DNA from: a virus
Lineage: Duplodnaviria > Caudoviricetes
IMG/VR virus record: IMGVR_UViG_3300008255_002541
Location: 1-40,318 of that record
DNA: 40,318 nucleotides
Direction: 5' to 3' (one strand)
Made by a program: the position numbers and the translations under genes. The notes under the pieces are model-generated. The model made no database searches, had not been told where the DNA came from, and saw only the letters and a program-made list of their open reading frames with translations. Numbering within the stretch: the first letter of the stretch is position 1; each line of letters begins with the position of its first letter. Below, piece by piece: positions 1 through 40,318 of the stretch.

Positions 1-382
1 CGCACTGGAGTCACCCGTCCCGATACTGTTGTTTTGCCCGAAGTGCGGACTCCAACATGTGGATACGGCAACTTCCGACTGGGACAATCCTCCCCATAAA
101 TCCCATCTTTGTCTTGGGTGCGGATACATTTGGCGTGTGTCCGATAGGCCGACTGTCGGGGTAGCTAGAATCAAAACCCGAGGTGATGCCGACAGCGCGG
201 AGTCACCCGTCCTATCGGATGAGGTGGCGCAGTTGGTGGCGTGGCTGAAATGGATAGCGGGTTCGCTTGGTCGTGCTCGCGAGAAAAGCATGGCGTCTCA
301 TGTCAACGATGCCGCCGCGCTGATCGAGCGGCTGTCCCGGCAGATCAAGACTCTCAAGAATCAACAACCGAAAGGAGACTAA
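1..382 (+). CDS. Partial hypothetical protein with a Cys/His zinc-binding module
   Basis: The frame is open from position 2 (ALESPVPILLFCPKC...), so the start lies upstream of the window. Contains CPKC..H and H..HLC.GC motifs; stop TAA at 380-382. Confidence 0.7.
   Translation, partial: ALESPVPILLFCPKCGLQHVDTATSDWDNPPHKSHLCLGCGYIWRVSDRPTVGVARIKTRGDADSAESPVLSDEVAQLVAWLKWIAGSLGRAREKSMASHVNDAAALIERLSRQIKTLKNQQPKGD
7..212 (+). repeat. 14-bp direct repeat GGAGTCACCCGTCC (7-20 and 199-212)
   Basis: Two exact copies 192 bp apart, in frame, both encoding ESPV. Confidence 0.85.
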
Positions 383-383
383 C

Positions 384-536
384 ATGTGGCAGGCTTTCGT
401 CGAATCCAAGAAGGGCGTAACCATCATCGAGTACGGACTCATCGGCGGTATCATTGCCATCGGGCTGGTCGCGGTCCTCGGCGACATTGGCACCGGACTC
501 AACACCGTGTTCACCACGATCAGCACCAGCGTTTGA
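384..536 (+). CDS. flp: Flp/Tad family type IVb prepilin (50 aa)
   Basis: Translates as MWQAFVESKKG|VTIIEYGLIGGIIAIGLVAVLGDIGTGLNTVFTTISTSV. Has Gly-1, Glu+5/Tyr+6 (Flp motif), a hydrophobic helix and a C-terminal Phe. RBS AAAGGAGA at 371-378, ATG 384, TGA 534-536. Confidence 0.93.
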   Translation: MWQAFVESKKGVTIIEYGLIGGIIAIGLVAVLGDIGTGLNTVFTTISTSV

Positions 537-544
537 CTTACGGC

Positions 545-575
545 GAATGCCGGGGATCACAAGTCTCCGGCATTC
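545..575 (+). promoter_or_regulatory. 13-bp stem-loop directly after the pilin gene (mRNA stabiliser or weak terminator)
   Basis: GAATGCCGGGGAT-CACAA-GTCTCCGGCATTC with two G-U pairs and no U-tract. Confidence 0.55.
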
Positions 576-604
576 ACAGCAAGTTAAAGGGAAACACTCA
601 ACAC

Positions 605-973
605 ATGCCTATCATTGACCTCGGGAATGGACTCAAGGTGAACGCCAACGGTCCCGCATTTCCCGGCAACACCACGCCGATCGGATGGCTGACTCGCGAC
701 GCTGCCTGCCAAGCCTTGTGGTATTTCTACAATATCGCACGCGAACGCAAGGCAATCGTCGGCAATTCCATCGACGATCAAATCATTCTTGAGGGGCAGG
801 ACTGGTTGCATACGTACTACCGTCAGCAGATGACGACTGTATGCAAGATATACGGTGTGACTCCTGAAGAAATGTACAAGTTCTGGCCCGCGGTTCGGCT
901 GGAAATTGCACGACTCAAGTGGCCAGAACCGCCAGCAGAAATCATGAACCTTAACGAAAGAAATGTGCAATGA
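605..973 (+). CDS. Hypothetical protein (122 aa)
   Basis: ATG 605 (MPIIDLG...) after AAGGGAA. The upstream part of track ORF 386..973 overlaps the pilin gene and is unlikely to be translated. ATGA overlap with the next gene. Confidence 0.75.
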   Translation: MPIIDLGNGLKVNANGPAFPGNTTPIGWLTRDAACQALWYFYNIARERKAIVGNSIDDQIILEGQDWLHTYYRQQMTTVCKIYGVTPEEMYKFWPAVRLEIARLKWPEPPAEIMNLNERNVQ

Positions 974-1341
974 GTCAGAAATCAAACGTACCCAACAGAC
1001 CGATTGCCGACAACGAAGGCAGCCAGCTATCGGGGAATCTCCTGTACTGGGATGACTTCGCAACGCTGACGCGGGGGTCTACCCTCACACGAGTCATCGA
1101 AGATGCCAACATGGCAGAGACGGACGTGGCGTTTGCGGCCCGCGCGATCTTGCGGCGGACGTACAGCGACGGAGTCTACGCCGCGCACGTTACCGGCGAA
1201 GTCACTGAGCGCATGGTGATTGTGCGGCGGGGGCAGGTGATCGTGAACACCGAGTTCGTCGCGCCCTTGCACGAGTTCCTGAAGCACTCCCGCATCACCA
1301 AGCGGATCGTCGAGGAGTCGATCTATGCCCCAACTCGATAA
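970..1341 (+). CDS. Hypothetical protein (123 aa)
   Basis: ATGA overlap with the previous gene and a short overlap with the next. Confidence 0.75.
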   Translation: MSQKSNVPNRPIADNEGSQLSGNLLYWDDFATLTRGSTLTRVIEDANMAETDVAFAARAILRRTYSDGVYAAHVTGEVTERMVIVRRGQVIVNTEFVAPLHEFLKHSRITKRIVEESIYAPTR

Positions 1342-2404
1342 CTTGCCGGATGCACAGCAGCTTGTAAAGGTTCTCAACATTGGGTTTTCCAAAGCAGGAA
1401 AGACTCACTGGACCATGCAGGCTGCCGAGCAGGGTTTCCGTTTGATCTTCCTCGACGGGGACCGCTCGTTGGCCACCCTCAATGCGCTGAGTCCTGAGGC
1501 CAAGAAGCGTGTGTTCTATGTGGACTGCCATGACACGGCAGGCCGGGCACGATTCGCAACTATCGTCAACAACATGTTCACGTCGCCGGTGTTCACATGG
1601 AATGATACGAAGCAGCAGCAAGTTGCGCCGTCTCAGCAGCCGGAAGTTGGCGACACCATCTGGGAAATCCGTCTGGACCAGGTTGACTCCCGCGACATTC
1701 TTGTCATTGACACATGGACGAGTCTGTCGTATTCGTGGCTCAGCGATGCGGCGGGCGGTGCAATCAATCTCACGAATGAAAAGATTGATCGCGGGGTGTA
1801 CGCCGCCAGCGGGAACCGCGCAACGTGGGCATTGAATCTGCTGTGCAGCGTACTGAAGTGTCACGTTGTGGTCAACGGCCACCCGGACGAGTTTCAGAAG
1901 CTGCGGAATCCTGAAGGGAAGCTGAAGAACCAGACGGAAACCGACAAGATTGTCGAGTGGACTCGGTCGATTCCCGCCAGCGTCAGCAAACCGCACGGTT
2001 CCCGCATGGCCAAGCACTTCACGGACGTGTTGAATCACCGCATCACCGCAGGTCGGGATCGGAAGATTGATTCCCGCTCGTTCGATGATGAAGATGGCGG
2101 CGGAGTCTGGAACGACTTCGAGGCGGCAAGTAAACGCACGTTCTCGGACCTCGCGAAAGCTCGCGGAGTCACACTGCCGGGCAAGGACGCACCGTTCTCG
2201 AACGCTATCACCGTCTATGAGTGGACGGAGGAACGCGCATCCGGGGGCGTGAAGGGTCCGGTGAAACAAGTCGCCACGCCAGTTACCGGCGGAACCGTGA
2301 AGGTGGCGATGCCGACGGTAATCCCCGGCAGCAAGGCAGACGGCGAAGTGAATCCCGTCAAGCCGAAGATGCCTGTGGGTATCGCCGCGTTGATGAAGAA
2401 GTAA
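1325..2404 (+). CDS. P-loop ATPase, Sak4/AAA_24-like ssDNA-annealing protein
   Basis: N-terminal Walker A GFSKAGKT and Walker B-like ILVIDTWT; RBS GAGGAG; lies next to a DUF669-like SSB gene. Confidence 0.75.
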   Translation: MPQLDNLPDAQQLVKVLNIGFSKAGKTHWTMQAAEQGFRLIFLDGDRSLATLNALSPEAKKRVFYVDCHDTAGRARFATIVNNMFTSPVFTWNDTKQQQVAPSQQPEVGDTIWEIRLDQVDSRDILVIDTWTSLSYSWLSDAAGGAINLTNEKIDRGVYAASGNRATWALNLLCSVLKCHVVVNGHPDEFQKLRNPEGKLKNQTETDKIVEWTRSIPASVSKPHGSRMAKHFTDVLNHRITAGRDRKIDSRSFDDEDGGGVWNDFEAASKRTFSDLAKARGVTLPGKDAPFSNAITVYEWTEERASGGVKGPVKQVATPVTGGTVKVAMPTVIPGSKADGEVNPVKPKMPVGIAALMKK

Positions 2405-2509
2405 AACACGAGATTCCCCGAAAGGGGATTGCGGCCCGGCGCATCCGGGACAACAAAGCAAGTAGCATGTAGTGAATCACACAGCATTTGCAATCGAAGG
2501 AACGAGTAC

Positions 2510-3001
2510 ATGAGCGAAGGTATGAGTCTTGCCGATCTGGCCGGTGTTGACATGGGTCAGGTGGATGCGGTTCGTTTCGAGAATCTCCCCGCCGGTGCCT
2601 ATGTTTTCAAGGTGAACGAAGCAGTCATCACCACCGTCGGCGCCGAAGAAAAGCCGGTCGTGCGATTCTCCATGGAGGTCGTCGAGTGCGTCGCCCTCAA
2701 TGAGGATCAGCGCGATCCTGAGTCCCTCGTCGGCCGCAAGTATCAGGAGATGATTTTCCTCAAGGAGGACACGCTTCTGGCAGACCTCGGCCGAGTCCGT
2801 GCCATGTTGCAGGACATGGGATTCAAGAACGAAGGGCCGCTCGGTGGGCGCCCGATGGACGGCAAGACGGGACTCCTGGATGAGATCGCGGAAGCGGAAC
2901 ATGTGTTTCCGGCCCGCGTGAAAATCCGCAAGGACCCGAGGGACTCCACTCGCGAGTTCGCCAACTTGCAGTTCGAGAAGCACAAGGCCGAAGCCGCCTA
3001 A
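2510..3001 (+). CDS. Putative single-stranded DNA-binding protein (DUF669-like)
   Basis: FENLPAGAYVFKV N-terminal motif typical of this family, located downstream of the Sak4-like gene. ATG 2510 after AAGGAA. Confidence 0.65.
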   Translation: MSEGMSLADLAGVDMGQVDAVRFENLPAGAYVFKVNEAVITTVGAEEKPVVRFSMEVVECVALNEDQRDPESLVGRKYQEMIFLKEDTLLADLGRVRAMLQDMGFKNEGPLGGRPMDGKTGLLDEIAEAEHVFPARVKIRKDPRDSTREFANLQFEKHKAEAA

Positions 3002-3022
3002 CAACCGGCGTCAGTTTTGTCT

Positions 3023-3057
3023 CGCCGGGGAGTGGATGTGTGCTTCGCTCCCCGGCG
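3023..3057 (+). terminator. GC-rich stem-loop after the SSB gene
   Basis: CGCCGGGGAG / CTCCCCGGCG perfect 10-bp stem, extendable with G-U pairs; weak U-tract. Confidence 0.5.
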
Positions 3058-3083
3058 TTGCAAAGATGATGGAGGGAATCAAA

Positions 3084-3425
3084 GTGCGCGTGCTTGTTTG
3101 TGGCGGCAGAGACTTCAGGGACCGTCAACATGTGTTCAGCGTTCTTGACGCAATACATGCAAAGACTCCTATTACATGCATCATCGAAGGCGGTGCATCC
3201 GGTGTTGATTCGATGGCGCGCGTATGGTCCACATCACGAAAGGTTGGACTGGCCGAGTATCCTGCACTTTGGCATAAGTATGGGCGCGCTGCCGGGTACA
3301 TCAGGAATGGGCAGATGTTGAATGAAGGATTCCCTGATCTTGTGGTGGCTTTCCCCGGAGGCGCGGGGACAAGAAACATGATAGAGCAAGCGCGAAAGTG
3401 CAATGTTCCGGTAGAGTTAAGGTAA
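3084..3425 (+). CDS. SLOG superfamily protein (DUF2493/YspA-related)
   Basis: Motifs VLVCGGRDF, IIEGGASGVD, YGRAAGYIRN.QM and VAFPGGAGTRNM. GTG start 7 nt after GGAGGG. Confidence 0.88.
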   Translation: MRVLVCGGRDFRDRQHVFSVLDAIHAKTPITCIIEGGASGVDSMARVWSTSRKVGLAEYPALWHKYGRAAGYIRNGQMLNEGFPDLVVAFPGGAGTRNMIEQARKCNVPVELR

Positions 3426-3440
3426 CTAAGGAAATCAAAG

Positions 3441-3638
3441 ATGGTAAAGAAACTCTATGACTTCAAGGATGTGGTCGTGCTGCGCGAAACCCCGCGCGCT
3501 GTTTGCATCCTGAGTCCGTTGGACAACAAGACAGAAGTGTGGTTGCCGCTGTCGCAGGTGGAGATCGACTACACGGAACCGCACCTTGCGGACGTAACGA
3601 TTCCTGACTGGCTCGCAGACGAGAAGGATTTGCTATGA
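3441..3638 (+). CDS. Small conserved phage protein
   Basis: RBS TAAGGA; ET..A...VWLPLSQ...IPDWLA pattern seen in small phage proteins. Confidence 0.75.
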   Translation: MVKKLYDFKDVVVLRETPRAVCILSPLDNKTEVWLPLSQVEIDYTEPHLADVTIPDWLADEKDLL

Positions 3639-3961
3639 CTGAGCGCATCTTCAAATTGATTGACGGCGTGACCGTCCTGCTTACATCGCGGGGCGCCACC
3701 GAGGAAACCCCGCTTGTGCATGATGACATGAATCATGTGTACTTCGGCAGGCTCGTGAAGCGCACGCAAGTGTGGCGGTACTACAAGTTGCTGGCGAACG
3801 GTCTGACGCTGCGAGTGGACCCGAAGGGAGGGATTGTGCACTGGCGGATTCCGCACCCGCAGCGTGCCTTGTTCAGCGAGGCGGACACCTCTGCTTGTGT
3901 CGGCAGTCTTTCCGGGGCGCGCCCGTTGATTTACATCGGGGAGCCGCAAGGGAATGAGTGA
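3635..3961 (+). CDS. Hypothetical protein (108 aa)
   Basis: ATGA overlap upstream and a short overlap with the polA start. Confidence 0.7.
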   Translation: MTERIFKLIDGVTVLLTSRGATEETPLVHDDMNHVYFGRLVKRTQVWRYYKLLANGLTLRVDPKGGIVHWRIPHPQRALFSEADTSACVGSLSGARPLIYIGEPQGNE

Positions 3962-6533
3962 GTTAGCTGCGCCGCCGCGAATCCTGTATTACATGGACAA
4001 GTCAGGCATCGCGTCTGGCTACCAACTCCTGTTCCAGAAGATGCATCTTAAGGCTGGAATCCAGCCCCGCGAAATCATCCCGATGAATGTCTACTCGTCG
4101 GGTGACGATGTTGTGAAACGCAAGGACGCGAAAAGCAGCACGTGGGTGTTGAATCCTGAGAAGGCCGACCTTGTTGCCAGTATGTTGCGGCGGGATATTG
4201 CACGCCTGAATCCCAGTATGCTTGTGACAGTTTGCCCGGCGGTGGCCGGTGTTGTATCAGGCGGCTACACATTGGAGCAAGCGCGCGGAGGAGTCTATGA
4301 CTTTGAAGGCATCCCGGTGGTGTGCACCTACCCTATCAACGCGATTCATCGAAGAAAAGATGACAGGGATCAGGACGAGGAAGGCGTCAGCAAGTACTCA
4401 GTCAAGTCAGGAGAATGGATTCTGGCGCAAGACTGGGGTAAGATTGGACGCATTTTCTCGGGCAAGCAGCGGAAGATTCCCGCCTTCAATTACAGCATCG
4501 TTCGCACGCTGGCAGATGCCGAGTGCGCTGAGCGGTTCCTTGCTGATTGCCTACTTATATCGACTGACATTGAGACAGTGGGTGCACGCACCCGTACAGA
4601 ACTTTCGTGCACTGGGTATACCGGAGTCAATGCGTTGGGAGTTTGCCGAACGTTTGTATTCCCACTGTACGACAGATTTGTCGACGGACATTGCTACTGG
4701 GACTTGGAAAGCCACGTTAAGATTTGGGAGTGCATCCAGCGAATCAACTCCATGAAGGCGTATTTCACGGCGCACAATGGCTCATACGATATGCAGTATC
4801 TTGTGCGGGACAACGCGCCGGTGGACAACTACTTGCTGGATTCCAGTAACATGTGGCATGCCCTGTATCCAGAGCAAAAGAAGAATCTTGATTTTGTCAC
4901 GTCAATCTGGCAGGACTCCTACCAGTACTGGAAGGCAGACATCAAGGGACTGGACGACAAGGACGAAACCAAGCGAGATACCAGTATGGAAAAGTACTGG
5001 CGATACAACGCGCTAGACTGCTACTGGACTCTGTGGAACACGGCCTTCATGCTGGTCGCGATGCGGCAGACCCCTTGGTATCAGCAGAATTTTCGCAAGG
5101 AATTCATGTTGAATCTTGGCGCGATCACTATGTCCATGCGCGGCGTGAAGGCAGACAAGAAACGACTCATGGATCACAGGCTGGACCTCGAAGAAAAGGC
5201 CAGTGCTGCACGCGTGCGATTCAAGTACCTTGTAGCGGACGAGGACTTTAACCCCAACTCGCCGCAGCAGGTGCAGTGGCTGTTGTATCAATTCCTCGGG
5301 GTGCCGGAACGCAAGGTTCGTGGCAAGACTGCATCGACCGATGAAGCATCGTTGAAGCTGGCGCGGCTGGATCACCCATTGTTCGCGGTGTTCATTGACG
5401 CACTGTGGGAAGCGAAGAAACCGGCGAAGCAGATCTCCAACATCTGCGATATGCCGATTTATACGGATCGTTTTCGCACCGCGTTCGGCGTCTCGACGGA
5501 AACGTGGCGACTCAATTCCCGCAAGAGCGTATTCTGGGACGGAACCAACGCGCAGAATATTACGAAGAAGATGCGGGACTGGCTAGTTGCGGACGAGGGG
5601 TATGTGCTGTTCGACTTCGACTACTCGCAGAGTGACGCTGTGTTTATGGCGTTCGAGTCGAATGACCCCGAGTACATCAAGACAATGACGGACAGCAGGG
5701 ACTCACATGCCGTACACGCCGAGGAATTCTTTCAAGTACCCTATGACAAAATCGTCAGAGGTAAGAAAGCTGACGATCCTTTCATCACTCACCCGACTAA
5801 TGGGATCAGGAATCTCGCTAAGAGAGTCGTGCACGGGAGTAATTTTCAGATGGCAGCCACGACACTTTACCTTACTATGGGTAAAGAGGCAGTCATTGCA
5901 GCAGCTGAGGCATTGGGTCACAAGGATGCAGCAGCCTGGCCTGAAAAAGCACTCATTGCACTCTGCGACAGGCTACTCCAAGCGTACCTGAGGAAGTACC
6001 CCGGACTCACGAAGTTCTTCACGACGATCAAGCAGATGCTGAAAACTGGCGGCACCGTCGAGAACGCGTTCGGCATGAAACGAATCATCATGGGGGATGT
6101 GAACGACGGAACCACGCAGCGGGAGGCCACCGCCTTCTTTGGGCAAAGCGATACCGCAGGTAATATGAATCGCTGCATCGAAGAAATGCTGTTCGGCCAC
6201 ATGCAGGAACGTTTCCGCGACGGCCCGAATCCGCATTTCAACGAACCTCCAATCATGTTGATGCGCGACCCCGACTTTGAGTTGCTGCTGCAAGTGCACG
6301 ATTCATTCGTGGGCCAAGTGAAGATTGAGCGGGCGCATGAGTTGCTAACAAAACTCTTGACAGTCATGCAGCGCCCGGTCATTATTAATGGTCACGAAGT
6401 TGTCGTGCGCGCAGAAGGCGAAGTTGGATTCAGGTGGTGCAAGGACATGATTCCCTTTAACCCCAACGATCCAACGTCGTTAGATGACTTGGTGAAATCT
6501 CGTAAAACTCTCTCCTTGCAAGGAAGGAACTGA
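3954..6533 (+). CDS. polA: Family A DNA polymerase with a 3'-5' exonuclease domain and a degenerate N-terminal UDG-like domain
   Basis: Exo I DIET, Exo II HNGSYD, Exo III YNALD; motif A DYSQ, motif B RNLAKRVVHGSNF, motif C LQVHDS. Confidence 0.95.
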   Translation: MSELAAPPRILYYMDKSGIASGYQLLFQKMHLKAGIQPREIIPMNVYSSGDDVVKRKDAKSSTWVLNPEKADLVASMLRRDIARLNPSMLVTVCPAVAGVVSGGYTLEQARGGVYDFEGIPVVCTYPINAIHRRKDDRDQDEEGVSKYSVKSGEWILAQDWGKIGRIFSGKQRKIPAFNYSIVRTLADAECAERFLADCLLISTDIETVGARTRTELSCTGYTGVNALGVCRTFVFPLYDRFVDGHCYWDLESHVKIWECIQRINSMKAYFTAHNGSYDMQYLVRDNAPVDNYLLDSSNMWHALYPEQKKNLDFVTSIWQDSYQYWKADIKGLDDKDETKRDTSMEKYWRYNALDCYWTLWNTAFMLVAMRQTPWYQQNFRKEFMLNLGAITMSMRGVKADKKRLMDHRLDLEEKASAARVRFKYLVADEDFNPNSPQQVQWLLYQFLGVPERKVRGKTASTDEASLKLARLDHPLFAVFIDALWEAKKPAKQISNICDMPIYTDRFRTAFGVSTETWRLNSRKSVFWDGTNAQNITKKMRDWLVADEGYVLFDFDYSQSDAVFMAFESNDPEYIKTMTDSRDSHAVHAEEFFQVPYDKIVRGKKADDPFITHPTNGIRNLAKRVVHGSNFQMAATTLYLTMGKEAVIAAAEALGHKDAAAWPEKALIALCDRLLQAYLRKYPGLTKFFTTIKQMLKTGGTVENAFGMKRIIMGDVNDGTTQREATAFFGQSDTAGNMNRCIEEMLFGHMQERFRDGPNPHFNEPPIMLMRDPDFELLLQVHDSFVGQVKIERAHELLTKLLTVMQRPVIINGHEVVVRAEGEVGFRWCKDMIPFNPNDPTSLDDLVKSRKTLSLQGRN

Positions 6534-6536
6534 ACT

Positions 6537-6767
6537 ATGGCGTTTCAAACCTACGCTGACGTTACCGGAGTCGTTGACGGTACTGCCGCTGGTGAAGTGG
6601 CCGCCCTCGGCGTGCTGCTTCTGGCAGCGATTCCCGATCCGGATACTGCCCCGGCCAATCAGGGCGTTGTCGGTCACCTCGACCAGATGACTCCCGTCTG
6701 CGCTTCGCAGTTGCGGGCGGAAATCACCGCGCTGCTGGCAGCGGTCGCGGCGGCACCGACGGTGTAA
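6537..6767 (+). CDS. Small Ala/Val-rich hypothetical protein (76 aa)
   Basis: RBS AAGGAA, fills the gap after polA, and is followed by a terminator-like hairpin. Confidence 0.75.
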   Translation: MAFQTYADVTGVVDGTAAGEVAALGVLLLAAIPDPDTAPANQGVVGHLDQMTPVCASQLRAEITALLAAVAAAPTV

Positions 6768-6785
6768 CGAACAGCATACCGCATT

Positions 6786-6818
6786 GGGGTGGGGAATCGC
6801 AAGGTTCCCCACCTTTCT
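6786..6818 (+). terminator. Rho-independent terminator
   Basis: GGGGTGGGGAATC-GCAA-GGTTCCCCACCTT followed by TCT; GNRA loop. Confidence 0.7.
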
Positions 6819-6838
6819 GTGATACCAAGGGGAAGAAG

Positions 6839-7456
6839 ATGGCAAAAATTATTGTACTTTGTGGCCCGCCCAAAAGTGGGAAGGACACGTTCGCAGGGTG
6901 GATTGATTCATACAAGCGAAAGCAGGAACCGCACGCGTCGATAGTTCACGTGCGCCTTGGGCTGCCGTTGCGCGAAATAACTCACGCGCTGTTCGGCGTG
7001 CCCGGTTCAGTCATGCAGTTTGAGCATACCAAGGATGCCCCGTCGGCGTACTTTAACGGCATGACTCCACGCGAGGCGTACATTTGGGTGGACAACGCTA
7101 TCGTGCGCCCGACCTTTGGCAACTCTCATTATGCCAAAATCACGTTGAGGCGTTTGACAAACGTACACGAGGATACGTTGATGGTTATCAACGGTCCACG
7201 GGATCATGAAGATACACAGCCATTCATCGACGAGTACGGCAAGGATAACGTGCTTGTGCTGAATCTGCATCAGGAAGGCACAACGTGGGAAGGCGATTCC
7301 CGCAGCTACCTGCCCTTGAATCTCGTTCCAATGATGGTGGACTTTCATGTTGCGCCCGGTAAATTCGACTTCACAAGAGAATCCCTCATCGACCTCTACC
7401 GGTTCTGGTCCGCCGGGAAATTCCAAGAAGGATTCAGTCCGACCGAGTGGCCGTGA
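6839..7456 (+). CDS. Deoxynucleoside monophosphate kinase-like P-loop protein
   Basis: N-terminal IIVLCGPPKSGKDT, plus PLRE and MTPRE segments typical of phage dNMP kinases. Confidence 0.75.
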   Translation: MAKIIVLCGPPKSGKDTFAGWIDSYKRKQEPHASIVHVRLGLPLREITHALFGVPGSVMQFEHTKDAPSAYFNGMTPREAYIWVDNAIVRPTFGNSHYAKITLRRLTNVHEDTLMVINGPRDHEDTQPFIDEYGKDNVLVLNLHQEGTTWEGDSRSYLPLNLVPMMVDFHVAPGKFDFTRESLIDLYRFWSAGKFQEGFSPTEWP

Positions 7457-8774: not shown

Positions 8775-8812
8775 TCCGCACCGTGTTAATCATCAACCAA
8801 GGGAACTGAGTC

Positions 8813-9427
8813 ATGAGTAAGAACCATCTGATGCTGGATATCGAAACGTTGGGAGCCAATCCCGGCTGTGTTGTGTTGTCGGTCGGAATCGCATCGTTCA
8901 AAATCGACGGCGATGGCGAGAACTGGTCGGCGTTTCACGCGCTGAATCTCCCCGAGCAGATCAAGCGGGGGTTCACCATTGAAGCGAACACGTTGCAGTG
9001 GTGGATGAAGCAGAGCGCCGACGCGGCGAGTGTATCGTTCAGCGATACGAGCAACTCGGTCAGCATGATGAGTCTGTTGATGAGCCTCTCGCAGCAGATT
9101 CGCCAGCTTGACCCGCAGTACCTGTTCGCTCGCGGGTATGATTTCGACTTCGGGATTCTCGGGCACCTGTTCGATGAATACGGAATCGGCCGCCCGTGGA
9201 AGTACAATCAGCTGCGGTGTGTCCGCACCGTCACCAGTATGGTACAGGCGGATGCGCTGGCCGAACATCTGGCGTCGAAAGGCATCGGAGTCGTGGACAG
9301 CGATGACGGCGACGGAGATACGGAAGTGCTCACGTTCGTTGCCCACTCGCCGGTGGATGACTGCATCAAGCAGATCGTCGAAGTGCAGGGCGCCTGTCGG
9401 ATTCTGGGAATCCCTGACTTCGAATAA
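8813..9427 (+). CDS. DEDDh 3'-5' exonuclease (phage type)
   Basis: Motifs HLMLDIETLG, ARGYDFDF and HSPVDD. Confidence 0.88.
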   Translation: MSKNHLMLDIETLGANPGCVVLSVGIASFKIDGDGENWSAFHALNLPEQIKRGFTIEANTLQWWMKQSADAASVSFSDTSNSVSMMSLLMSLSQQIRQLDPQYLFARGYDFDFGILGHLFDEYGIGRPWKYNQLRCVRTVTSMVQADALAEHLASKGIGVVDSDDGDGDTEVLTFVAHSPVDDCIKQIVEVQGACRILGIPDFE

Positions 9428-9450
9428 CCTGCGAGTTGACATTCGTGAAT

Positions 9451-30090: not shown

Positions 30091-30094
30091 GCGC

Positions 30095-30817: not shown

Positions 30818-30843
30818 CTGGACTCACTTCCAAAATAGGTGGA

Positions 30844-30878: not shown

Positions 30879-30892
30879 CCAAGTCAAGGAGC

Positions 30893-31258: not shown

Positions 31259-31279
31259 CTTCATTCTCCCTGGTGAGTT

Positions 31280-31356
31280 GTGAGGGGCGGGACCGCCAAG
31301 GGAGACCACCCCCGCCCCTCACGTTGCTCCTACGGTTTTGCGCGTGACCGTAGAGA
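31280..31356 (-). terminator. Two tandem stem-loops after the major capsid gene
   Basis: CTACGGT/ACCGTAG (31330-31353) and a 12-bp perfect stem GTGAGGGGCGGG/CCCGCCCCTCAC (31280-31322). Confidence 0.65.
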
Positions 31357-31361
31357 GTCAG

Positions 31362-32624: not shown

Positions 32625-32666
32625 GTGTCGCTCCTTGTGTAGCTGGCGCCTCGCGTCAGCGTTGGG

Positions 32667-33434
32667 TTATTTGAGTCCGAAGTAGTCAGACCAGTCAGTG
32701 TGGTTGGCGTTTCTGCTGCCGCCCGCAAAGTTGGGATTCAGGTCGCCACCATCTTCCGGAAAAACGGCGCCGCCTGCTTCGCGGGCCAGATTCCTGATGT
32801 ACGCCTGAGTCACTTCCACGGCCTTTTCCTTCGATCCGTGCTTCTTCATCGCCTGCGTGAACACCTGCGAGATGACAGGGGCCAGTACAGGATTCGCAGC
32901 TTGTGGGATTTTCTGAACCAGATACTGCTGCTGTTCGCGATTGTTCAGCGTCGTACCAACGTCGTTCTGAAACTGCTGAGCCATTTCTGCCTTCAGCTGC
33001 TTGAACATGTGTCCCACAACCGTCAGATTCGCCCGGAAAGATTCCCGGAGGAGGCCGTTGATCTGCTGGTTGAATCCATCGATGTTGCCATCGGCGAGTT
33101 CCTGCATGGTCTCCGGCTTCATGGCGACTCCGAAGTCGAGCGTTTTGATTGCTTCATCAAACTGCGCGACAGGATTCGCCTGAGTCTCTGACGTCGTACT
33201 TTCAGCCGGAGGAGTCCCAGACGCTTTGGTTTCCTCCGGCTCGACCCAAAGATTACCAAGATCGAGGGGGTCTTGTCCAGCGTTATTATCCACACCGCCC
33301 GGATTCCCCGCGGAATTGTTGCCTCCCTGCGCAGGAGGAGTCCCGGTGTTACCGCCGCCGCTACCGCCGCCAGCGCCTTCATCCGGCGGGCTGCGGTAGA
33401 TACGCTGCATGAGTGACTTATTCCGAATCAGCAT
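32667..33434 (-). CDS. Capsid scaffolding protein
   Basis: Between portal and capsid; Gly/Pro/acidic low-complexity N-terminus and a helical Gln-rich core. Confidence 0.75.
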   Translation of the reverse strand: MLIRNKSLMQRIYRSPPDEGAGGGSGGGNTGTPPAQGGNNSAGNPGGVDNNAGQDPLDLGNLWVEPEETKASGTPPAESTTSETQANPVAQFDEAIKTLDFGVAMKPETMQELADGNIDGFNQQINGLLRESFRANLTVVGHMFKQLKAEMAQQFQNDVGTTLNNREQQQYLVQKIPQAANPVLAPVISQVFTQAMKKHGSKEKAVEVTQAYIRNLAREAGGAVFPEDGGDLNPNFAGGSRNANHTDWSDYFGLK

Positions 33435-33666
33435 AGTTCAGGTCTCCTGTGAACTTAACGAGTTGTTGCCAATGGGCCAGTGCGGTGAGTATCTGACGCG
33501 CATGGGCGGCCAGGTTCTCTGACTCAGGATCTAGGCCCTGAAGTTCTTGAGTCAGAAGATTGATATTGAGTTCCGCGAACGCAAGGATGGCACCCTTTGC
33601 CTGTATGAGTCCGTGGACCATGACCGCGTCAATGGCGTTTTCAGCGGTCGGGTGGATGAGATTCAT
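33418..33666 (-). CDS. Small head-module protein (82 aa)
   Basis: Fills the portal-scaffold gap with tight spacing; helical composition. Confidence 0.7.
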   Translation of the reverse strand: MNLIHPTAENAIDAVMVHGLIQAKGAILAFAELNINLLTQELQGLDPESENLAAHARQILTALAHWQQLVKFTGDLNYADSE

Positions 33667-33668
33667 AG

Positions 33669-35606
33669 CTACGCTCCTGCGGGAGGCGCTTCTCCGCCCT
33701 GTCCCTGCGCTGCCGCCGCGCCCTCAGCAAGCTGCTGTTGCTGTTCAGGAGTCCGCCGGAACTGCGACAGGTCAACGTCGATATCAAGATGCTCGCCAAT
33801 GGAATCAAGCATGCCGAGCACGTCAATTTCGCCGAGGGCTTCCCGCGACTGAATGACGCGATCGAGGATGTTCATCATGAACGTCGCCGCTTGCTGCCGG
33901 TCCAGCGTCTTGAGTCCCTGGCCGATCATGTAGGACAAGTCGACCGAGTTCAGCGACTTCGGGTCGAATTCGACTTGCTGCCCTGTGTCGTTGTCAGTGA
34001 ACTCCACCGACGGCATGAACTGCTGGATGTTTTGAACCATATGACGCCGCGCGGGCTTGTAGGCTTGCTCGTCGATGAGTCGTGCCAGCTTCTGCTTGCG
34101 TCCGTTGGCGCCTTGCAGCACGGCCTGGACTTGATCGGTGACAGCGCGGTCAATTGACGCAATCTGTGCCGGGTTGCCCTGTACAGGGAAGAACTTCTCC
34201 TGCACCTCAAGAACCGTAGCAATGTCCTGAATGTTCTGCTTCGTGTCGAGATAGTTGTTGTCGTGATACACATGCTTGCGAATGTCGTCATCCATGCCGA
34301 GCATGTTTACAGGGATTCGCGCCACAACTTCGCCGTCAGGAATGGATTCGAGATCCACCTTCGACTTGTTGTAGTAGGTAATGCCCCAAAGATTCTTGCG
34401 CACCGCCTTCTTGTGCGTGTTCATGAGGAAGCTGGCGAACACCTGGAATGGGTCCATCAGTTCGCCCATGGACTTCAGGATTCCTGCGGAGTCCGGGTAG
34501 GGATTCGCGACGTAGACAGGAAGTTCCTGATGCAGGTTGACTTGCCGCGCAGCCGCCACGATGTACTTGTCGTTGCAGATGACGATTCGCCAGACTTCCA
34601 AGCCGTCGCGTGTTTTGTCATTTTGCGGCGCGAGTCCGAACATTTTCGGTGTGATGTGAATGTACATCGTGACAAATTCCAGCTGGCGCTGAGTCTCGGC
34701 CGGAGCGCCGCTGGCGCCGAGGTAATTCCGCCAGTAGTTTTGCCCGCCCGGCAGCGCGTTGCCTGCGATATCGTTGATGGAGATTCCGATCTCGCTGATG
34801 GGGTCACGATACCAGACGCACTGCGTGTTTGCATGCGATGCTTCCTTCAGCGCGGCGTCCATGTTGTAGATGATTCCCTGCTGATGCAGGCGCTGCGAGG
34901 TGAACAGATTCTTGAGTTCCGCGAACGCGAAGAACTCGCCGTTGCTGTAGCACTTGGTTCCGGGGACAGACGGGTCAAGGAACAAGTTGTACATGTCCAA
35001 TGACTGCATCTCGTTGCCCGCCCAAACGACTTCGGTGCCGATTTCCGCCTTCCCGTTTGCAGCCTGCGTGATTGTGTTCTGAGTCATTTCCTTCCAGCGG
35101 GTCGTGAAGGCCGCCATGTTGTACTTTAGCGAGTCCATGAGGTGCTTGTGTGTTTCCTCATAGTAGCCGAACACGCCAGCGGAGCGATTCATCACTTCCG
35201 TGAAGCCCGTCACCAACGCTTCCTTCTGCCGCTGTCTGCCGATGCCGTGGAAGAATCCGCTCTGCGGTGCGAACACTTGCAGGAAGAACGTCACGGCGTC
35301 ATCGAGCGTCAGCAGAGTCAGCGGGAGATTGCTGTCCTGCGCGATGGGCTTCCCGGTGCGGTTACGCTTGCGCTCCGCCTTGCGCTCTTCTTCGTTCTCG
35401 AGAATCCAACCCGCGATGTTTCGGTCGATTTTGGCAATTCGACCGATGCGAGCATCACGATCAGGCTTGGCCGATTCCAGCCGCTGCTTGATGTATCGCA
35501 GCAGCTTGTCGTGATTCATCACGTTCCGCGCAGGATGCCCCGGAGGGAAATCGCGGGCGCGCGCAAGGGTGGGGAGGTCGGGAATCATCAAGGGTTCGTC
35601 ACGCAT
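33669..35606 (-). CDS. Portal protein (645 aa)
   Basis: Directly after terL; LDMYNLFLDPS motif and a Gln-rich C-terminal tail typical of podovirus portals; RBS GGAG. Confidence 0.88.
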   Translation of the reverse strand: MRDEPLMIPDLPTLARARDFPPGHPARNVMNHDKLLRYIKQRLESAKPDRDARIGRIAKIDRNIAGWILENEEERKAERKRNRTGKPIAQDSNLPLTLLTLDDAVTFFLQVFAPQSGFFHGIGRQRQKEALVTGFTEVMNRSAGVFGYYEETHKHLMDSLKYNMAAFTTRWKEMTQNTITQAANGKAEIGTEVVWAGNEMQSLDMYNLFLDPSVPGTKCYSNGEFFAFAELKNLFTSQRLHQQGIIYNMDAALKEASHANTQCVWYRDPISEIGISINDIAGNALPGGQNYWRNYLGASGAPAETQRQLEFVTMYIHITPKMFGLAPQNDKTRDGLEVWRIVICNDKYIVAAARQVNLHQELPVYVANPYPDSAGILKSMGELMDPFQVFASFLMNTHKKAVRKNLWGITYYNKSKVDLESIPDGEVVARIPVNMLGMDDDIRKHVYHDNNYLDTKQNIQDIATVLEVQEKFFPVQGNPAQIASIDRAVTDQVQAVLQGANGRKQKLARLIDEQAYKPARRHMVQNIQQFMPSVEFTDNDTGQQVEFDPKSLNSVDLSYMIGQGLKTLDRQQAATFMMNILDRVIQSREALGEIDVLGMLDSIGEHLDIDVDLSQFRRTPEQQQQLAEGAAAAQGQGGEAPPAGA

Positions 35607-37146
35607 CCGCTATCTCCATTCCGTATTTAGCGACTCCTGGCCGCCCCAGTTGTTCAGGGTCTAGGCCCTGCCATTTGTCAAGAATCATTGTCATGTACAT
35701 CGTCAGCATGAGGAGGCCGTACGCGCACGAGTCAATGAGGTCGTCTTTGTTCTTCCGCTTCGTGCGGTCATAATGCGACAGCTGTGCTGCGATTCCTATG
35801 TCGCCACGCGGCAATGCGTAGCCGCCCTTCGCAATCAAGGATACCCACGCGCCGATGCGCTCAGCTTTCTGAGTGATACCTGCTGGCAGCGCGTGAATTT
35901 CCAGGACTTCTTCAAGGTGGTCCTGAATCGCGTACAGGCGAAACAGGGTTCCAAGCGCTCCCTGCGCCGCTACGCTTTCGATTCCCCACAGCCACGCACG
36001 CCACTCACGCGCGAGTTCGCGAGCGACAAGATACAATCCGTACTCGTCCCACTTGCCGACGCGGTAGTCTACGACCATGGGTGGAGCGTAGCGAGGAATC
36101 ACATGCACCACAACGGCGCAATCGTCTGCGGACGTTTTCTCGCTGAACGCGGGATCAATTGTGATGAACGCGCCGATGATATCAGCAGCGTCGGGAATGT
36201 CCGCGTACTTGAGTCCGTCAGTTGCGAATCCATTGACTCCCGCGCCGGGCATGTTCATCATCTCGGCGAACCAGCCCTCGACTTGTCCGAGGTCTTGGTA
36301 TTCTTCGAGGTCCGCAGCAAGGACTTCTAAGGGCCAGCGGTCTGGCCAGAGTGGTGACAGCGTTCCGTCCTCGCCGAACACAAGGGAGCCGAGAACCACA
36401 GGATTCCAGTTTGGGCGCTGCGACAAACGAAACAGGAGACATGTGTTGCTAATCATGTTTCCTAGCCAGATGACCTTGCAGCGTCTCCCCATGGCCTTCA
36501 GGAAGGTACGAAACATCCACGTGTCCAGCTTCTTCTGAAGCATTTCGGTGGCCGTGTTATCAATATCTTCAAGGTCGTCCACGACTGCGATGTCAGGGCG
36601 TGCGTTATCGACGTTGATTCCTCGCATCTGCTGTCCTGCACCGGCGGCGCGCAATATGCAACGCTTCGTGCCGATGGAGAATATCCAGAGTCCGATGGTT
36701 TCTGATTCTTTGTGAATCTCAATCTCGCCGAACAAGGAAACAAAGTTGGGAGATTTCATGTATTCCATAATGTCTCGGCACGCGCCGATCGCAATTGTGG
36801 ACGTGTTGGAGAGATACACAGCGAATCGGTAGTCGCTGAACAGGAAATACCAGAGGACTGCCAGCTTCGCCAGCGTGGTTTTCGCATGATCGCGAGGGAT
36901 CGCCAGCAGGACTCGCGCTAGTGTATCGTCCTTGAGTCGATCGAAGATTGTCTTATGAAACTCGGGAACAGGAAACGCAAGATGCTCCGCGAGAAATACC
37001 TCGATGAACACCTCGCTTGATTCCTTCAGCAGATGCTTGATCGCGTCAAAGTCGACGAGAACCTGCTGCGTGTCCGCGTTGGGACCTGCCCCCGCACTGA
37101 CTCCGTCAATGTCTTCCTCGAAATCGCTTTGCCGGAAATCGTTCAC
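35599..37146 (-). CDS. terL: Terminase large subunit
   Basis: Walker A PRDHAKTT, Walker B VVDDLE, and nuclease motifs IDPA and DDLIDS. Confidence 0.95.
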   Translation of the reverse strand: MNDFRQSDFEEDIDGVSAGAGPNADTQQVLVDFDAIKHLLKESSEVFIEVFLAEHLAFPVPEFHKTIFDRLKDDTLARVLLAIPRDHAKTTLAKLAVLWYFLFSDYRFAVYLSNTSTIAIGACRDIMEYMKSPNFVSLFGEIEIHKESETIGLWIFSIGTKRCILRAAGAGQQMRGINVDNARPDIAVVDDLEDIDNTATEMLQKKLDTWMFRTFLKAMGRRCKVIWLGNMISNTCLLFRLSQRPNWNPVVLGSLVFGEDGTLSPLWPDRWPLEVLAADLEEYQDLGQVEGWFAEMMNMPGAGVNGFATDGLKYADIPDAADIIGAFITIDPAFSEKTSADDCAVVVHVIPRYAPPMVVDYRVGKWDEYGLYLVARELAREWRAWLWGIESVAAQGALGTLFRLYAIQDHLEEVLEIHALPAGITQKAERIGAWVSLIAKGGYALPRGDIGIAAQLSHYDRTKRKNKDDLIDSCAYGLLMLTMYMTMILDKWQGLDPEQLGRPGVAKYGMEIADA

Positions 37147-37847
37147 GAGTCAATGTCCCCATCCAGCGGCGTGTCGAAGGAAATCTCAAACAGACTTTTC
37201 GGGCGCGCCGTCTTCTGCCGAATCGCGGTTGACGGAGAGGTGGACACATTGTTGGGTACACGTGGAGACTCGTGTGTAGGAATCTCCATGTCGATGATTT
37301 CATCCTTGACTCGACGGCGCCCCAACAGCGCGTTGACTGCGTTCATGTCGGGCCGTCCGTTGGGATTCAGCTTGTCAATGTTCACGCTGATTTTGCGTTC
37401 TTCCGCGATTGAATCCCCGGAGGCGAACTTCTGCACAATGCGCTCCGTAAGGACCAGCGGGATTCGCGTTCCCTGATTCCCGTCAAGCACACGGGGCGTG
37501 TTGCGCACCCGCCGAATTGCCTTGTTGGCAACAGCAGCGACTCGCAGATTGAGGTCCGGGTCTTTGTTGAACTTGAGGGCGAACGCGAGATTCCCCAGGG
37601 CTTTGTGTTCGAGGTCATCCCAGCCTTCGTCTGTCTCAACATCCCGTTTCGCAGTCGCTCCCTGTGCTTCGTCCTTGAGTTGCAGGAACACCGGGTGCGT
37701 TTGGAGAGTCGCGAACTCGTCCTGACTCAGGTCAAAGCTTTCGCAAATGGCGGACGCGGAAATCCCGTACACCATATACTTCGCCACAGTCCGCACATGC
37801 TCCAGCGGAATCGGCAGCTCATTGACGTCTTTAGTCAGCGCGTTCAC
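37143..37847 (-). CDS. terS: Probable terminase small subunit
   Basis: Immediately upstream of terL with GTGA coupling; N-terminal HTH-like segment; RBS AAGGA. Confidence 0.65.
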   Translation of the reverse strand: MNALTKDVNELPIPLEHVRTVAKYMVYGISASAICESFDLSQDEFATLQTHPVFLQLKDEAQGATAKRDVETDEGWDDLEHKALGNLAFALKFNKDPDLNLRVAAVANKAIRRVRNTPRVLDGNQGTRIPLVLTERIVQKFASGDSIAEERKISVNIDKLNPNGRPDMNAVNALLGRRRVKDEIIDMEIPTHESPRVPNNVSTSPSTAIRQKTARPKSLFEISFDTPLDGDIDS

Positions 37848-38106
37848 GCTTCAGTTCCTTTCAATTCCCGGCATTCCAGTACGCTGGCGATTCATTAGGA
37901 ACCTGCTGAATTTTTTGCGCAACAGAATGAGAGAGCCATATTTACCCTGCCGGGCGGCAGATTCTTTAGGGGGAGTACCCCCGGCCCTGCGTCCAGCTGC
38001 TGTTCCAGCGCAGTGAGTGGCCAGTGCGCACGCTGCGCATGGAGTTGGCTGGGCCGCTGGTTGATTCAGGATGAGGCAATGGTTCACTCGTTGCTGTTGA
38101 AGGCAT

Positions 38107-38135
38107 AGTGTGACAGCGGGCGTGCTGCGTGTCAA
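38107..38135 (-). promoter_or_regulatory. Sigma70-type promoter for the packaging/structural operon
   Basis: TTGACA, 17-bp spacer, CACACT, with TG at the extended -10 position. Confidence 0.7.
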
Positions 38136-38185
38136 GATGATAGAGTATATGTAATGTTAGGGTAACTAAATGGCCTGTGAGTGTG

Positions 38186-38448
38186 AGGCGCAGCCTGTGT
38201 CTATGCGATCTACGATTGACTCGTTGCGCAGCAACACATTAACACGGCGCAGCGCAGCGAGCATCTTCGTTAATAACTATGAGCGCAGCGAATCATAACA
38301 GGAGCGCAGCGATAGCATGTGCGACAGCACGGCTACGCATCTTGCGAATCAACCCTGAGCGTAGCGAATCGTTAACAAAACCGAGCGCAGCGAGTTCTTA
38401 CGAATTAACAATGAGCGAAGCGAACTTCATTAATCCCGAGCGAAGCGA
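38186..38448. repeat. Array of (G)AGCGNAGCGA repeats and GNA-loop mini-hairpins
   Basis: Copies at 38251, 38281, 38302, 38357, 38383, 38413 and 38438. Perfect hairpins AGGC-GCA-GCCT (38186) and GTTGC-GCA-GCAAC (38223). Confidence 0.9.
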
Positions 38449-38483
38449 GGAAAATTTTTTGACTAGGTGGTAACATAGGAGTC

Positions 38484-38518
38484 AAAAAGAAAGCAGCAAG
38501 TGATGATTTGCTGCTTTC
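38484..38518 (-). terminator. Rho-independent terminator ending the right-hand early operon
   Basis: 11-bp stem GAAAGCAGCAA/TTGCTGCTTTC followed by TTTTT on -. Confidence 0.85.
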
Positions 38519-38573: not shown

Positions 38574-38777
38574 CTACATCGTATCAAAAACCGCGCTGGC
38601 TGGTGCGATCCACTCGGCGGCGGTGAGACATAGGATCATGGCGAGAGTTAGGACGATGATGATGACGCAATCACGGCGCGTCTGGGCGCGGCGCTGGCGG
38701 GTGAGTTGGTGCCAGTAGTCCAGCGATGCGTCGCGAGGGTTGCGTTGGGCGCTGCAACGGCGCTTGTGATCGGTCAT
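38574..38777 (-). CDS. Small basic protein with a C-terminal TM helix (67 aa)
   Basis: ATGA coupling; Arg-rich N-terminus followed by VIIIVLTLAMILCLTAA. Confidence 0.6.
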   Translation of the reverse strand: MTDHKRRCSAQRNPRDASLDYWHQLTRQRRAQTRRDCVIIIVLTLAMILCLTAAEWIAPASAVFDTM

Positions 38778-38956
38778 GGTGCGACACTCGCGTTGGCGCG
38801 AATAAGCGTCACTTTGGTGTATCCGCGCACGTTATCAACTCGGTTCTGTCCGCGCGCGTGGCTGTAGGTGTAGCCATGCTGAGTGATAAGGCGCATCACT
38901 GCGCTGTATCCGAGCGTGGCTTCTGGCTCTGTGTGGCTGTAGCTGATCTGGATCAT
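38774..38956 (-). CDS. Hypothetical protein (60 aa)
   Basis: ATG 38956 (MIQISY...) 8 nt after GGAG. Confidence 0.65.
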   Translation of the reverse strand: MIQISYSHTEPEATLGYSAVMRLITQHGYTYSHARGQNRVDNVRGYTKVTLIRANASVAP

Positions 38957-38976
38957 TGGTGTAACTCCATGATGCG

Positions 38977-39034
38977 TGATTGCATCGGGTCGCTGGCGAC
39001 AGCGTGAACCATCGCCAGCGGGCCGCTGCAATCA
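38977..39034 (-). promoter_or_regulatory. Long imperfect intergenic hairpin (possible RNase III site)
   Basis: Nested arms TGATTGCA/TGCAATCA and CGCTGGCGA/TCGCCAGCG with an internal loop. Confidence 0.55.
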
Positions 39035-39943
39035 GGCGTCGGTGTCGTCGTCGCTCTCGTCGGTGTCGTCGTCATCGGTGGCGAACAGGGCGTCGAGGTC
39101 GTCAAGCCCGGTGGCGTCGTCGCCAGTCGTGAACGTGACTGTCGAGCGGTTCGCTTCCCATGTGTCGAACAACTCAGTGTCGAGAACAACGTCTGTCTTT
39201 TCGTCCAGTGCCGTCCCGGCTTCCTTCTTGGCCGCGAGGTCGGCGTTGTGCTTCGCGGCAAGCTGCCTGAACAAGGAATAGGCGCGGGTGAACACTCCGG
39301 CCTTTTCCAAGTCGGGATACATCGTCTCCGCGAATGCCTCGGACTGGAGCGCCTTACGCAGTAACTCACTGTTCAGGTTGTACCGGGCGATGGCGGCCGA
39401 CTTGTTCATGGTCGCCAGTACCAACGGACGCAGGGCCGAGTACGCGCCGAGGTCGATGCGGACGCCAGCGGTGCGCGTGCTGATTGCGAAGTCGTCCACG
39501 GTCACCGGGAGTTGCGCGGGAACATCCTCGGGAGCGATACCTGCATCCGGCTTGGTTGCCTGCAAGTAACGCTGCAACAGGCGGCGATTGATCCCGGTTT
39601 CCCACTGGGACGCAATCCACTCCTGCCCTTTCTCGTCGGCCATGAACTGTTCGAAAGTCGGCGCATGGGTAACGAGTAGGGCGCGATCCCGGCTGGTCTG
39701 CTTGGGCAGCTTCTCGCGCAAGCGCACGATGATGATGTTTGAATCAACCGGAAAGTCATAGGTGGGTTCCCCGGCGTCGTTCTCGATCACCGGGAGATTG
39801 ATGACTTGGTCCACCGTGTCGGGTTTCAACTCCAACACCTTCTTCATGTAGGCGGCAGCTTCGGCGTGCTGCGCGGGCGCGAACACTTCACGCTGTGAGA
39901 CGTCATCGAACTTGGTGAGTTTGTTGATTGTCTGCATGTCCAT
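39032..39943 (-). CDS. Early protein with a highly acidic C-terminal tail (303 aa)
   Basis: RBS TGAGGA; first gene after a near-consensus promoter; ends DDLDALFATDDDDTDESDDDTDA. Confidence 0.85.
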   Translation of the reverse strand: MDMQTINKLTKFDDVSQREVFAPAQHAEAAAYMKKVLELKPDTVDQVINLPVIENDAGEPTYDFPVDSNIIIVRLREKLPKQTSRDRALLVTHAPTFEQFMADEKGQEWIASQWETGINRRLLQRYLQATKPDAGIAPEDVPAQLPVTVDDFAISTRTAGVRIDLGAYSALRPLVLATMNKSAAIARYNLNSELLRKALQSEAFAETMYPDLEKAGVFTRAYSLFRQLAAKHNADLAAKKEAGTALDEKTDVVLDTELFDTWEANRSTVTFTTGDDATGLDDLDALFATDDDDTDESDDDTDA

Positions 39944-40010
39944 TGTATCGGTTCCTCAAGTGAGGCACTGCGGAATTGCGGTGCCGGTCCGGGTCTCGCC
40001 CGGTTCACAC

Positions 40011-40039
40011 ATTCTATGCGCGCTGCCGCATGTTGTCAA
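40011..40039 (-). promoter_or_regulatory. Near-consensus sigma70 promoter (early)
   Basis: TTGACA (40039-40034), 17-bp spacer, TAGAAT (40016-40011), about 70 nt upstream of the 303-aa gene. Confidence 0.85.
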
Positions 40040-40318
40040 GTTCAAGATCGGCGGGAAACTGCGGGTTCTGGGCGAGCGTACAGCATTTCAGGCTTGTTGC
40101 AGTGCAAGCGCCGCCGGGTCGGGGGATGGTCGTGAGTGGCGGATTTCTGCCATTCTGGCGAGTTGCGAAAACCTAAAAACGGCGCTGAGTGGCTGTCTCG
40201 ACGTTCTAGGTACCAGCACAGCGGGCGCGCGAGACGGCCATCAGGCGGGCGTCTGCGGGCGTTCTAGGGCCAATGAGTGAAATTGCCTAAAAAATAGGCA
40301 GGATTCCGGGCTGAAATC

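Follow-up and report, generated by a model that had tools for sequence, protein, structure and literature searches.

Several described systems bear on the element treated here, an evenly ruled array of the word GANTC (hereafter the lattice) in the IMG/VR virus record IMGVR_UViG_3300008255_002541 (Duplodnaviria; Caudoviricetes), which comes from an uncultured phage. The whole stretch of 40,318 nucleotides (nt) analysed is referred to as the window. Hosts with the CcrM/GcrA system are reported to deplete GANTC more than two-fold, to approximately one site per kilobase (kb) (PMC4647560, PMC7987155, PMC6787082, PMC8919816), and GcrA is described as preferring the form YGAKTCK at promoter positions around −20 and +2 to +30 (PMC4647560). 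Depletion of GANTC has also been noted in pelagiphages (PMC9516812). The cyanobacterial HIP1 element is an 8-mer found about once per gene in host chromosomes, according to PMC5861425. Chi, an asymmetric 8-mer, is described in lambdoid phages as compensating for a missing recombination module (PMC12315714). Lastly, the p6 protein of phage phi29 is reported at about 700,000 copies per cell, with one dimer per 24 nt and an acidic tail, and acts on replication and on the switch from early to late transcription (PMC10899789).

The lattice of the window is a real, selected and undescribed genome architecture. No published description of such an array was found in the literature searched, from which most subscription papers fell outside the coverage.

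GANTC Excess

The window holds 481 GANTC sites, as against 151 expected from base composition, an observed/expected ratio (O/E) of 3.19. On the same measure the control words GTNAC, CTNAG and GGNCC give 0.98, 0.53 and 0.37. When synonymous codons are shuffled within the 38 called genes, 461 sites stand against 198 ± 11 (O/E 2.33, z 24.6), with the controls at 1.19, 0.86 and 0.62. Each of the four middle bases is enriched 2.0- to 2.4-fold, and all three reading frames exceed the shuffle. A sequence-only reading of the window had proposed that the word is under selection, and this is borne out, the controls not being equally enriched. Its hand counts of 17 sites in 1–1200, 10 in 9601–10800 and 12 in 33061–33664 were exact. 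The Markov model, which had been named beside the codon-preserving shuffle as a check, gives a far smaller excess: at maximal order O/E is only 1.21 (rank 5 of 256 gapped words), because the same excess inflates the 4-mer parts.

The word is written in at a cost, as is seen from rare codons and raised dipeptides. Glycine is encoded by GGA in 132 of 277 codons (48%) before F, I, L or V, as against 96 of 753 (13%) elsewhere. The examples first given of this habit are correct: both GGA codons of the pilin gene precede CTC, and GGA TTC, GGA ATC and GGA CTC occur in the gene of the major capsid protein (SU10_MCP; 31362..32624, − strand). The Asp/Glu-Ser dipeptide has an O/E of 1.21–1.76 in 13 lattice genomes, the window being the lowest, versus 0.89–1.03 in eight others. 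Intergenic DNA is as rich in the word as genic DNA (10.6 per kb in the window and 11.5–22.7 per kb in relatives). One-base variants of GANTC are near or below 1, with the exception of GANTT/AANTC (1.24), and the bases flanking the word are nearly free.

The lattice extends over 1..38483, without strand, and comprises 479 genic and intergenic sites at 12.4 per kb with a longest gap of 291 bp. An excess had been claimed for the window as a whole. It holds over this part and fails in 38484–40301, where sites are nearly absent, and thus does not span the entire window.

A second word behaves in the opposite manner. CCWGG is strongly avoided in the window (22 versus 128 in the codon shuffle), and the related genome G012 has none in 47 kb. 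This shortage is ordinary restriction avoidance beside the GANTC excess.

Distribution among Relatives

The enrichment is shared by some related phages. Among 53 loci with a capsid identity of at least 43%, a set that includes a few near-duplicates, 30 carry 10.7–18.9 GANTC per kb and 23 carry at most 5.4, while none of 37 more distant loci is enriched. In the phage and its lattice relatives GANTC is three to five times over expectation, with one site every 55–80 bp and about 600 per genome. Several lattice-free relatives and the Caulobacter phage Kuura avoid the word (O/E 0.25–0.40); Kuura itself, which has no lattice, stands at 0.25.

A terminase tree gives the lattice a single origin (support 91). 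In a five-protein tree the lattice-free genome G016 is the sister of the lattice genome G014 (SH-aLRT 100), which implies either a single loss or two gains. Within the lattice group the window branches deeply, and the clade is at least as deep as 45–50% capsid identity. A 49,156-bp contig, L163, is 99.97% identical to the window over 11.3 kb, and this near-identical contig completes a genome of approximately 49 kb.

Even Spacing and a 26-bp Ruler

The coefficient of variation (CV) of the gaps between GANTC sites is 0.60 in the window (to approximately 38.3 kb), 0.48–0.56 in 12 near-complete relatives and 0.71 in one partial relative. A random pick among the synonymously possible sites gives a CV of 1.01 ± 0.05, compared with 0.69 observed. 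No other word is under-dispersed like GANTC in any of the 14 genomes scanned, and a search for an alternative lattice word in 11 lattice-free genomes found none.

Distances between neighbouring sites are quantised and recur in steps of roughly 26 bp. Pooled over the 12 relatives, they peak at 24–27, 33–36, 48–52, 57–61, 75–78 and 84–87 bp, with troughs between, and those of the window favour about 31–35, 47–63 and 78–89 bp. Peak and trough windows set on the relatives hold in the window, with 190 versus 103 gaps (p 9e-8 against a smooth fit). The amplitude at 26 bp is 0.31 for GANTC, as against 0.014–0.092 for 14 control words. Multiples of approximately 25.5 bp, with or without an extra 9–10 bp, are the pattern that would be expected if a protein were to tile double-stranded DNA through contacts that depend on phase.

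Sites at Promoters

The lattice is also phased to predicted promoters. In lattice relatives a GANTC stands at −19..−15 or −31..−27 from the −35 box in 21 of the 30 promoters predicted for genes other than cl28, a conserved early gene; the background rate for these positions is 16%, taken over 2,162 intragenic hexamers. The upstream site lies exactly 17 bp from the −35 hexamer in nine promoters and at 20–25 bp in none. Many of the 30 also carry a site at +62–69 from the box. Positions −17 and −29 correspond to about −50 and −62 from the predicted start, and +62–69 to about +27 to +34. The core region is not enriched, and only three of the 30 have a site inside the spacer, at +7 to +12 from the box. 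The phage's own promoter of cl42 (on L163), which was not used to set these windows, has sites at −29 and +62. The cl28 promoters have an upstream site in 0 of 13 cases and a downstream site in eight of 13. In lattice-free relatives 3 of 54 promoters, counted by eye, have a GANTC at these upstream positions.

Some further promoter features were observed. The lattice-free genome G019 has GANTC at −30 and −18 of a cl42-type promoter near 35731 (L147), by chance or as a remnant. The predicted promoters of lattice relatives frequently have an extended −10 element, TGA-GACNNT or TGC-TAGNNT, which resembles that of Kuura rather than the TATAAT-type elements of lattice-free relatives. This type is a weak hint at the host group.

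The Site-Free Operon

Positions 38484–40301 form the sole large hole in the lattice of the window. The zone corresponds to one early operon on the − strand, predicted to be expressed first. It holds a single site (39741) in 1,818 bp, where genome density would give about 22 and dinucleotide shuffles give 7.5 (P 0.01). Its edges are a near-consensus sigma70 promoter with a predicted start (40011..40039, −; TTGACA-17-TAGAAT, an 11/12 consensus match) and a predicted intrinsic terminator (38489..38518, −), with the next lattice site (38479) lying in the T tail of the latter. The surroundings of the promoter are free of GANTC to about 260 bp. The operon contains cl28 (39032..39943, −), which encodes 303 amino acids (aa) and is a candidate for the protein that reads the lattice, and two small open reading frames (ORFs; 38774–38956 and 38574–38777, −) without GANTC.

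The divergent early gene cl34 has five sites in 1,152 bp, a neutral level. The 660-bp intergenic stretch between the depleted cl28 and cl34 is fully latticed at 13.6 sites per kb; thus the depletion tracks transcription units and not distance from an end. In relatives, the cl28 promoter falls within one of the longest GANTC gaps.

Two simpler causes of the hole were considered. A chimeric assembly is unlikely, as the sequence of the zone is identical in two sequencing runs from two studies (possible sources of the record) and in L163. High expression was also set aside: with 16 sites in the capsid gene, strong expression by itself does not keep GANTC out, and the weakly codon-biased cl34 is also low.

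Candidate Readers

By its position and its exemption from GANTC, cl28 is the leading candidate reader. It belongs to a family of 651 clusters, has capsid-like codon use (rank 1–8 of 29–42 genes in 14 genomes) and ends in an acidic tail. Its product is predicted to form a symmetric homodimer, with a score of 0.68 versus 0.00 for the best control, on a scale whose mark was reached by 20 of 30 solved dimers and one of 23 monomers. The dimer runs agree in at least 93% of contacts, at a pLDDT of at least 76. A fold search of representative chains with this confident model returned no Foldseek match under E 0.001, and the best VIA match is to unrelated globin domains (Z 5.3, rmsd 5.0 over 94 residues).

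The second candidate, weakly Alba-like on its modelled fold, is cl42 (L163:2966-3298, −), a small basic protein kept across the wider clade. Its top Foldseek rows are archaeal Alba proteins, at weak values (best E 0.005, TM 0.33–0.42), and in VIA the best Z is 6.1, with Alba at 5.0. A first impression from BLAST that cl34 and cl42 are lattice-specific families was dropped, as profile searches with hidden Markov models find both in lattice-free relatives.

Genome Content and Candidate Genome End

The genome is podovirus-like, with a family A polymerase, a Sak4-like protein, a primase, a SU10-type capsid, a portal and a terminase. The polymerase (3954..6533, +) lies near those of PaP2/PaMx41/Tiera-like podoviruses at 25–26% identity, and kinship to PaP2/PaMx41, Tiera and Kuura is distant (25–32% protein identity). 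Megablast of 1–20000 found no close cultured relatives, the best protein matches being at 25–32%. The contig L163 adds the missing 8.7 kb or so, with a helicase, an exonuclease, a pyrophosphatase and small genes. The completed genome carries a Sak4-like protein, exonucleases and a Dda-like helicase. In L163:8188-9200, approximately 1 kb of non-coding DNA separates divergent early genes; it has AT-rich stretches, short repeats and GANTC in 93–101-bp steps, and is a possible replication origin. Two genes of relatives are possibly linked to base modification: a dATP/dGTP diphosphohydrolase domain in G016 (L137:15059-15691) and a family 2 glycosyltransferase near the polymerase in G014 (L135:5691-6665).

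Beside the terminator of the site-free operon lie five or six short direct repeats (38261..38448, +) with a GAGCG-x-AGCGA core, three of them followed by GAATC. Their start-to-start distances are 76, 26, 30 and 25 bp. The contig of run X2 is circular and opens at 38483-38512; together with the repeats this marks a possible genome end or packaging signal. At the non-coding position 37968, four runs show one extra G just after it; the window is therefore probably one base short behind this position. The small terminase candidate (37143..37847, −) has 19.9 GANTC per kb and is among the densest genes of the window. In 13 of 13 relatives its gene is above the genome mean, and it is the most GANTC-enriched core gene.

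Host and Methylation

The sequence-only reading saw no methyltransferase gene in the window, and this now extends to the completed genome: at Pfam/PHROG sensitivity none was detected among 45 ORFs of the window and 13 of the added region, nor in the 100 family representatives scanned out of 147. PF01555 was likewise found in 0 of 20 near-complete related virus records. All four middle bases of GANTC are used, as CcrM recognition allows. A literature search for footprints of CcrM returned none.

No lattice was found in 300 sampled Pseudomonadota genomes. Matches to a triple-site pattern reach at most about 34 per Mb there, versus 283–2,286 in four lattice phages. One bacterial genome with many such matches, G279, owes them to a Ser-Asp coding repeat and not to a lattice.

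The window encodes a Flp/Fap pilin (384..536, +; PF04964, E 2e-15) that was not found in the related genomes compared and may block or alter a Tad pilus receptor. Its three best matches in the 300 genomes are in genomes without a GcrA match and the next two in genomes with one; a plasmid search gave one weak Burkholderia match. The pilin does not fix the host. The phage endolysins match phages of many Proteobacteria, cluster look-ups yielded no host either, and taxonomic labels from metagenome-assembled genomes on short phage contigs were not trusted as host evidence.

Proposed Mechanism and Alternatives

The account favoured here, offered tentatively as a plausible one and not as established, is that the lattice carries a protein coat with a phage-made reader, in which a dimer with a repeat of about 26 bp nucleates at GANTC in register with RNA polymerase. 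The sites would be a selected, genome-wide array of nucleation points for a two-fold symmetric DNA-binding protein. Each bound unit would cover about 25–26 bp, and the interval from one site to the next would be filled by one to three units, which would either touch or leave slack of roughly one helical turn. Polymerase-sized holes would be left at promoters: the upstream unit would abut the −35 box (site at −17) or stand one turn off (−29), and a 26-bp unit on the downstream site would abut the downstream edge of the open complex. The class I activator positions and polymerase footprint used here are textbook values. That the reader is made by the phage is the weaker step. It is suggested by the promoter of cl28, the sole one at which the upstream site never occurs: this early gene is conserved, and predictions make its product an abundant dimer. 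Such a coat would organise and shield the phage DNA and tune early promoters. As a self-tag GANTC would be well suited, since many hosts hold it at low density or methylate it. The fullest version is a phage-written chromatin map in which a self-tag every 55–80 bp nucleates a phage-made coat of 26-bp repeat, with nucleosome-like promoter phasing; such a map would tell phage DNA from GANTC-poor or CcrM-methylated host DNA, shield it and switch early promoters. This version is somewhat doubtful.

Several observations weigh against a coat with a phage-made reader. In the relative G007 the ruler is weak (ratio 1.25), as it is in the added 6.8 kb (38 peak versus 29 trough gaps), and G014 keeps the 26-bp period but is out of phase with the other lattice genomes by about 10 bp. 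The promoters were predicted by their match to a consensus, many of them are orthologous, and the choice of position windows followed inspection of the data. Depletion of the cl28 gene in relatives is only mild (O/E 0.84; below average in 11 of 12), and the product of this gene has a net acidic core (−8 here) and no known fold. The G014 record (92% complete) lacks cl28. Furthermore, lattice-free relatives, G016 among them, also possess cl28, cl34 and cl42, so that none of the candidate readers is inherited together with the trait. A tail-fibre module alone follows it, which fits a host-determined factor as well. DNA binding by any of the candidate proteins is itself hypothetical. To our knowledge, only enzymes of the CcrM/HinfI type read GANTC with any middle base.

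A rival account, the closest to the sequence-only reading, is a host factor: an alphaproteobacterial CcrM would bind or methylate the sites, and CcrM itself, or a reader of GANTC carrying N6-methyladenine (m6A), would form the phased array and protect the DNA or license its transcription. CcrM reads exactly GANTC, the phage has no methyltransferase that was found, and the use of all four middle bases is what CcrM permits. G016 lacks the trait yet keeps the candidate genes, as a host switch would give, and avoidance of GANTC by lattice-free relatives and Kuura indicates that the word matters to this phage group. The explanation is nonetheless rather unlikely. CcrM contacts concentrate on five base pairs, and a host factor present from the start leaves the missing upstream site at the strongest early promoter unexplained. 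The best pilin matches, as given above, do not single out genomes with GcrA. Methylating Alphaproteobacteria are reported to deplete GANTC (PMC8919816), and the 300 Pseudomonadota genomes have no lattice; the same two facts leave mimicry of host site density unsupported. A motor ruler is less probable again. Here the sites would be grips or checkpoints of an ejection ratchet or of the terminase, moving in steps of about 26 bp and checking for self-DNA. Even spacing would minimise long ungripped stretches, the site-free operon adjoins the candidate genome end, and the small terminase is the most enriched core gene, with adjacent repeats that share the 25–26-bp spacing; in Kuura a terminal repeat of 606 bp is reported to lie upstream of the small terminase (PMC9959647). 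A motor leaves the fixed placing of sites at predicted promoters unexplained, the 660-bp intergenic stretch is fully latticed, and relatives have sites through this region.

It is very improbable that the sites act singly, whether read out by GcrA-sigma70, serving to titrate CcrM or GcrA, or blocking restriction sites that overlap them; the sequence-only reading had listed titration and blocking as possible purposes. About 600 sites per genome would titrate a binder, considering the 4,542 reported in the Caulobacter chromosome (PMC4647560), and the sites downstream of promoters, at about +27 to +34, lie at the edge of the GcrA zone. Single sites, however, have no need of even spacing or of a ruler, and for blocking or titration the promoter phasing is equally superfluous. 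The GcrA read-out fits poorly: YGAKTCK makes up 88 of 481 sites in the window (0.18) and 0.21–0.37 in five lattice relatives, where about 0.25 is expected, the upstream sites at about −50 and −62 are not GcrA positions, and few promoters have a site within the spacer. The nearly free flanks argue against overlap with particular restriction sites. A neutral origin, from biased mutation, codon use or the composition of the proteins, would suit the low Markov value and has next to no probability; it is refuted by the codon shuffle and the spacing, with intergenic DNA equally enriched, one-base variants near or below 1 save GANTT/AANTC, and the under-dispersion of GANTC unmatched by other words in 14 genomes.

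Phages normally avoid methyltransferase and restriction words. This clade accepts rare codons and altered amino acids as the price of keeping one such word in a ruled array. If a protein coat does read the lattice, this would be a phage chromatin encoded in sequence and a novel means of distinguishing self DNA from that of the host. The window offers testable handles in the 26-bp ruler, the promoter positions (−17, −29 and +62–69), the exempt operon, the two candidate proteins and the lattice-free sister genome.

Comparison with Known Systems

The CcrM/GcrA system shares with the lattice the same word, any middle base and, in the published accounts, a tie to sigma70 promoters. The lattice differs from it in its density of 12–19 sites per kb, in its indifference to the flanks, in having upstream sites at around −50 and −62, and in a ruler that runs through the whole genome. 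Pelagiphages and Kuura resemble the lattice group in that lineages are split by GANTC density. Pelagiphages, as reported, and Kuura deplete the word, whereas the lattice clade saturates and phases it.

HIP1 is likewise a hyper-abundant, selected palindrome with a methylation site, periodic and with a function described as unclear (PMC5861425). In contrast to HIP1, the lattice is a gapped 5-mer placed every 55–80 bp in a phage, with quantisation at the level of the base pair. The Chi-rich lambdoid phages, as reported, also enrich a short host-read word genome-wide (PMC12315714). Unlike Chi, the lattice is palindromic and evenly ruled, and the phage has its own annealing protein, exonucleases and helicase.

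By analogy, the lattice would work most like the p6 complex of phi29, without being classed there. No homology to p6 emerged for cl28, whose model has no clear match among solved folds, in a search that covered p6 only if it is a representative chain. The published account presents p6 as guided by the bendability of DNA and not by a palindromic word written hundreds of times. In common with what is predicted for the proposed coat, p6 is reported as an abundant dimer with a fixed repeat and an acidic tail that organises the phage genome (PMC10899789); the counterpart of its repeat in the lattice would be the period of about 26 bp seen in the site spacing.

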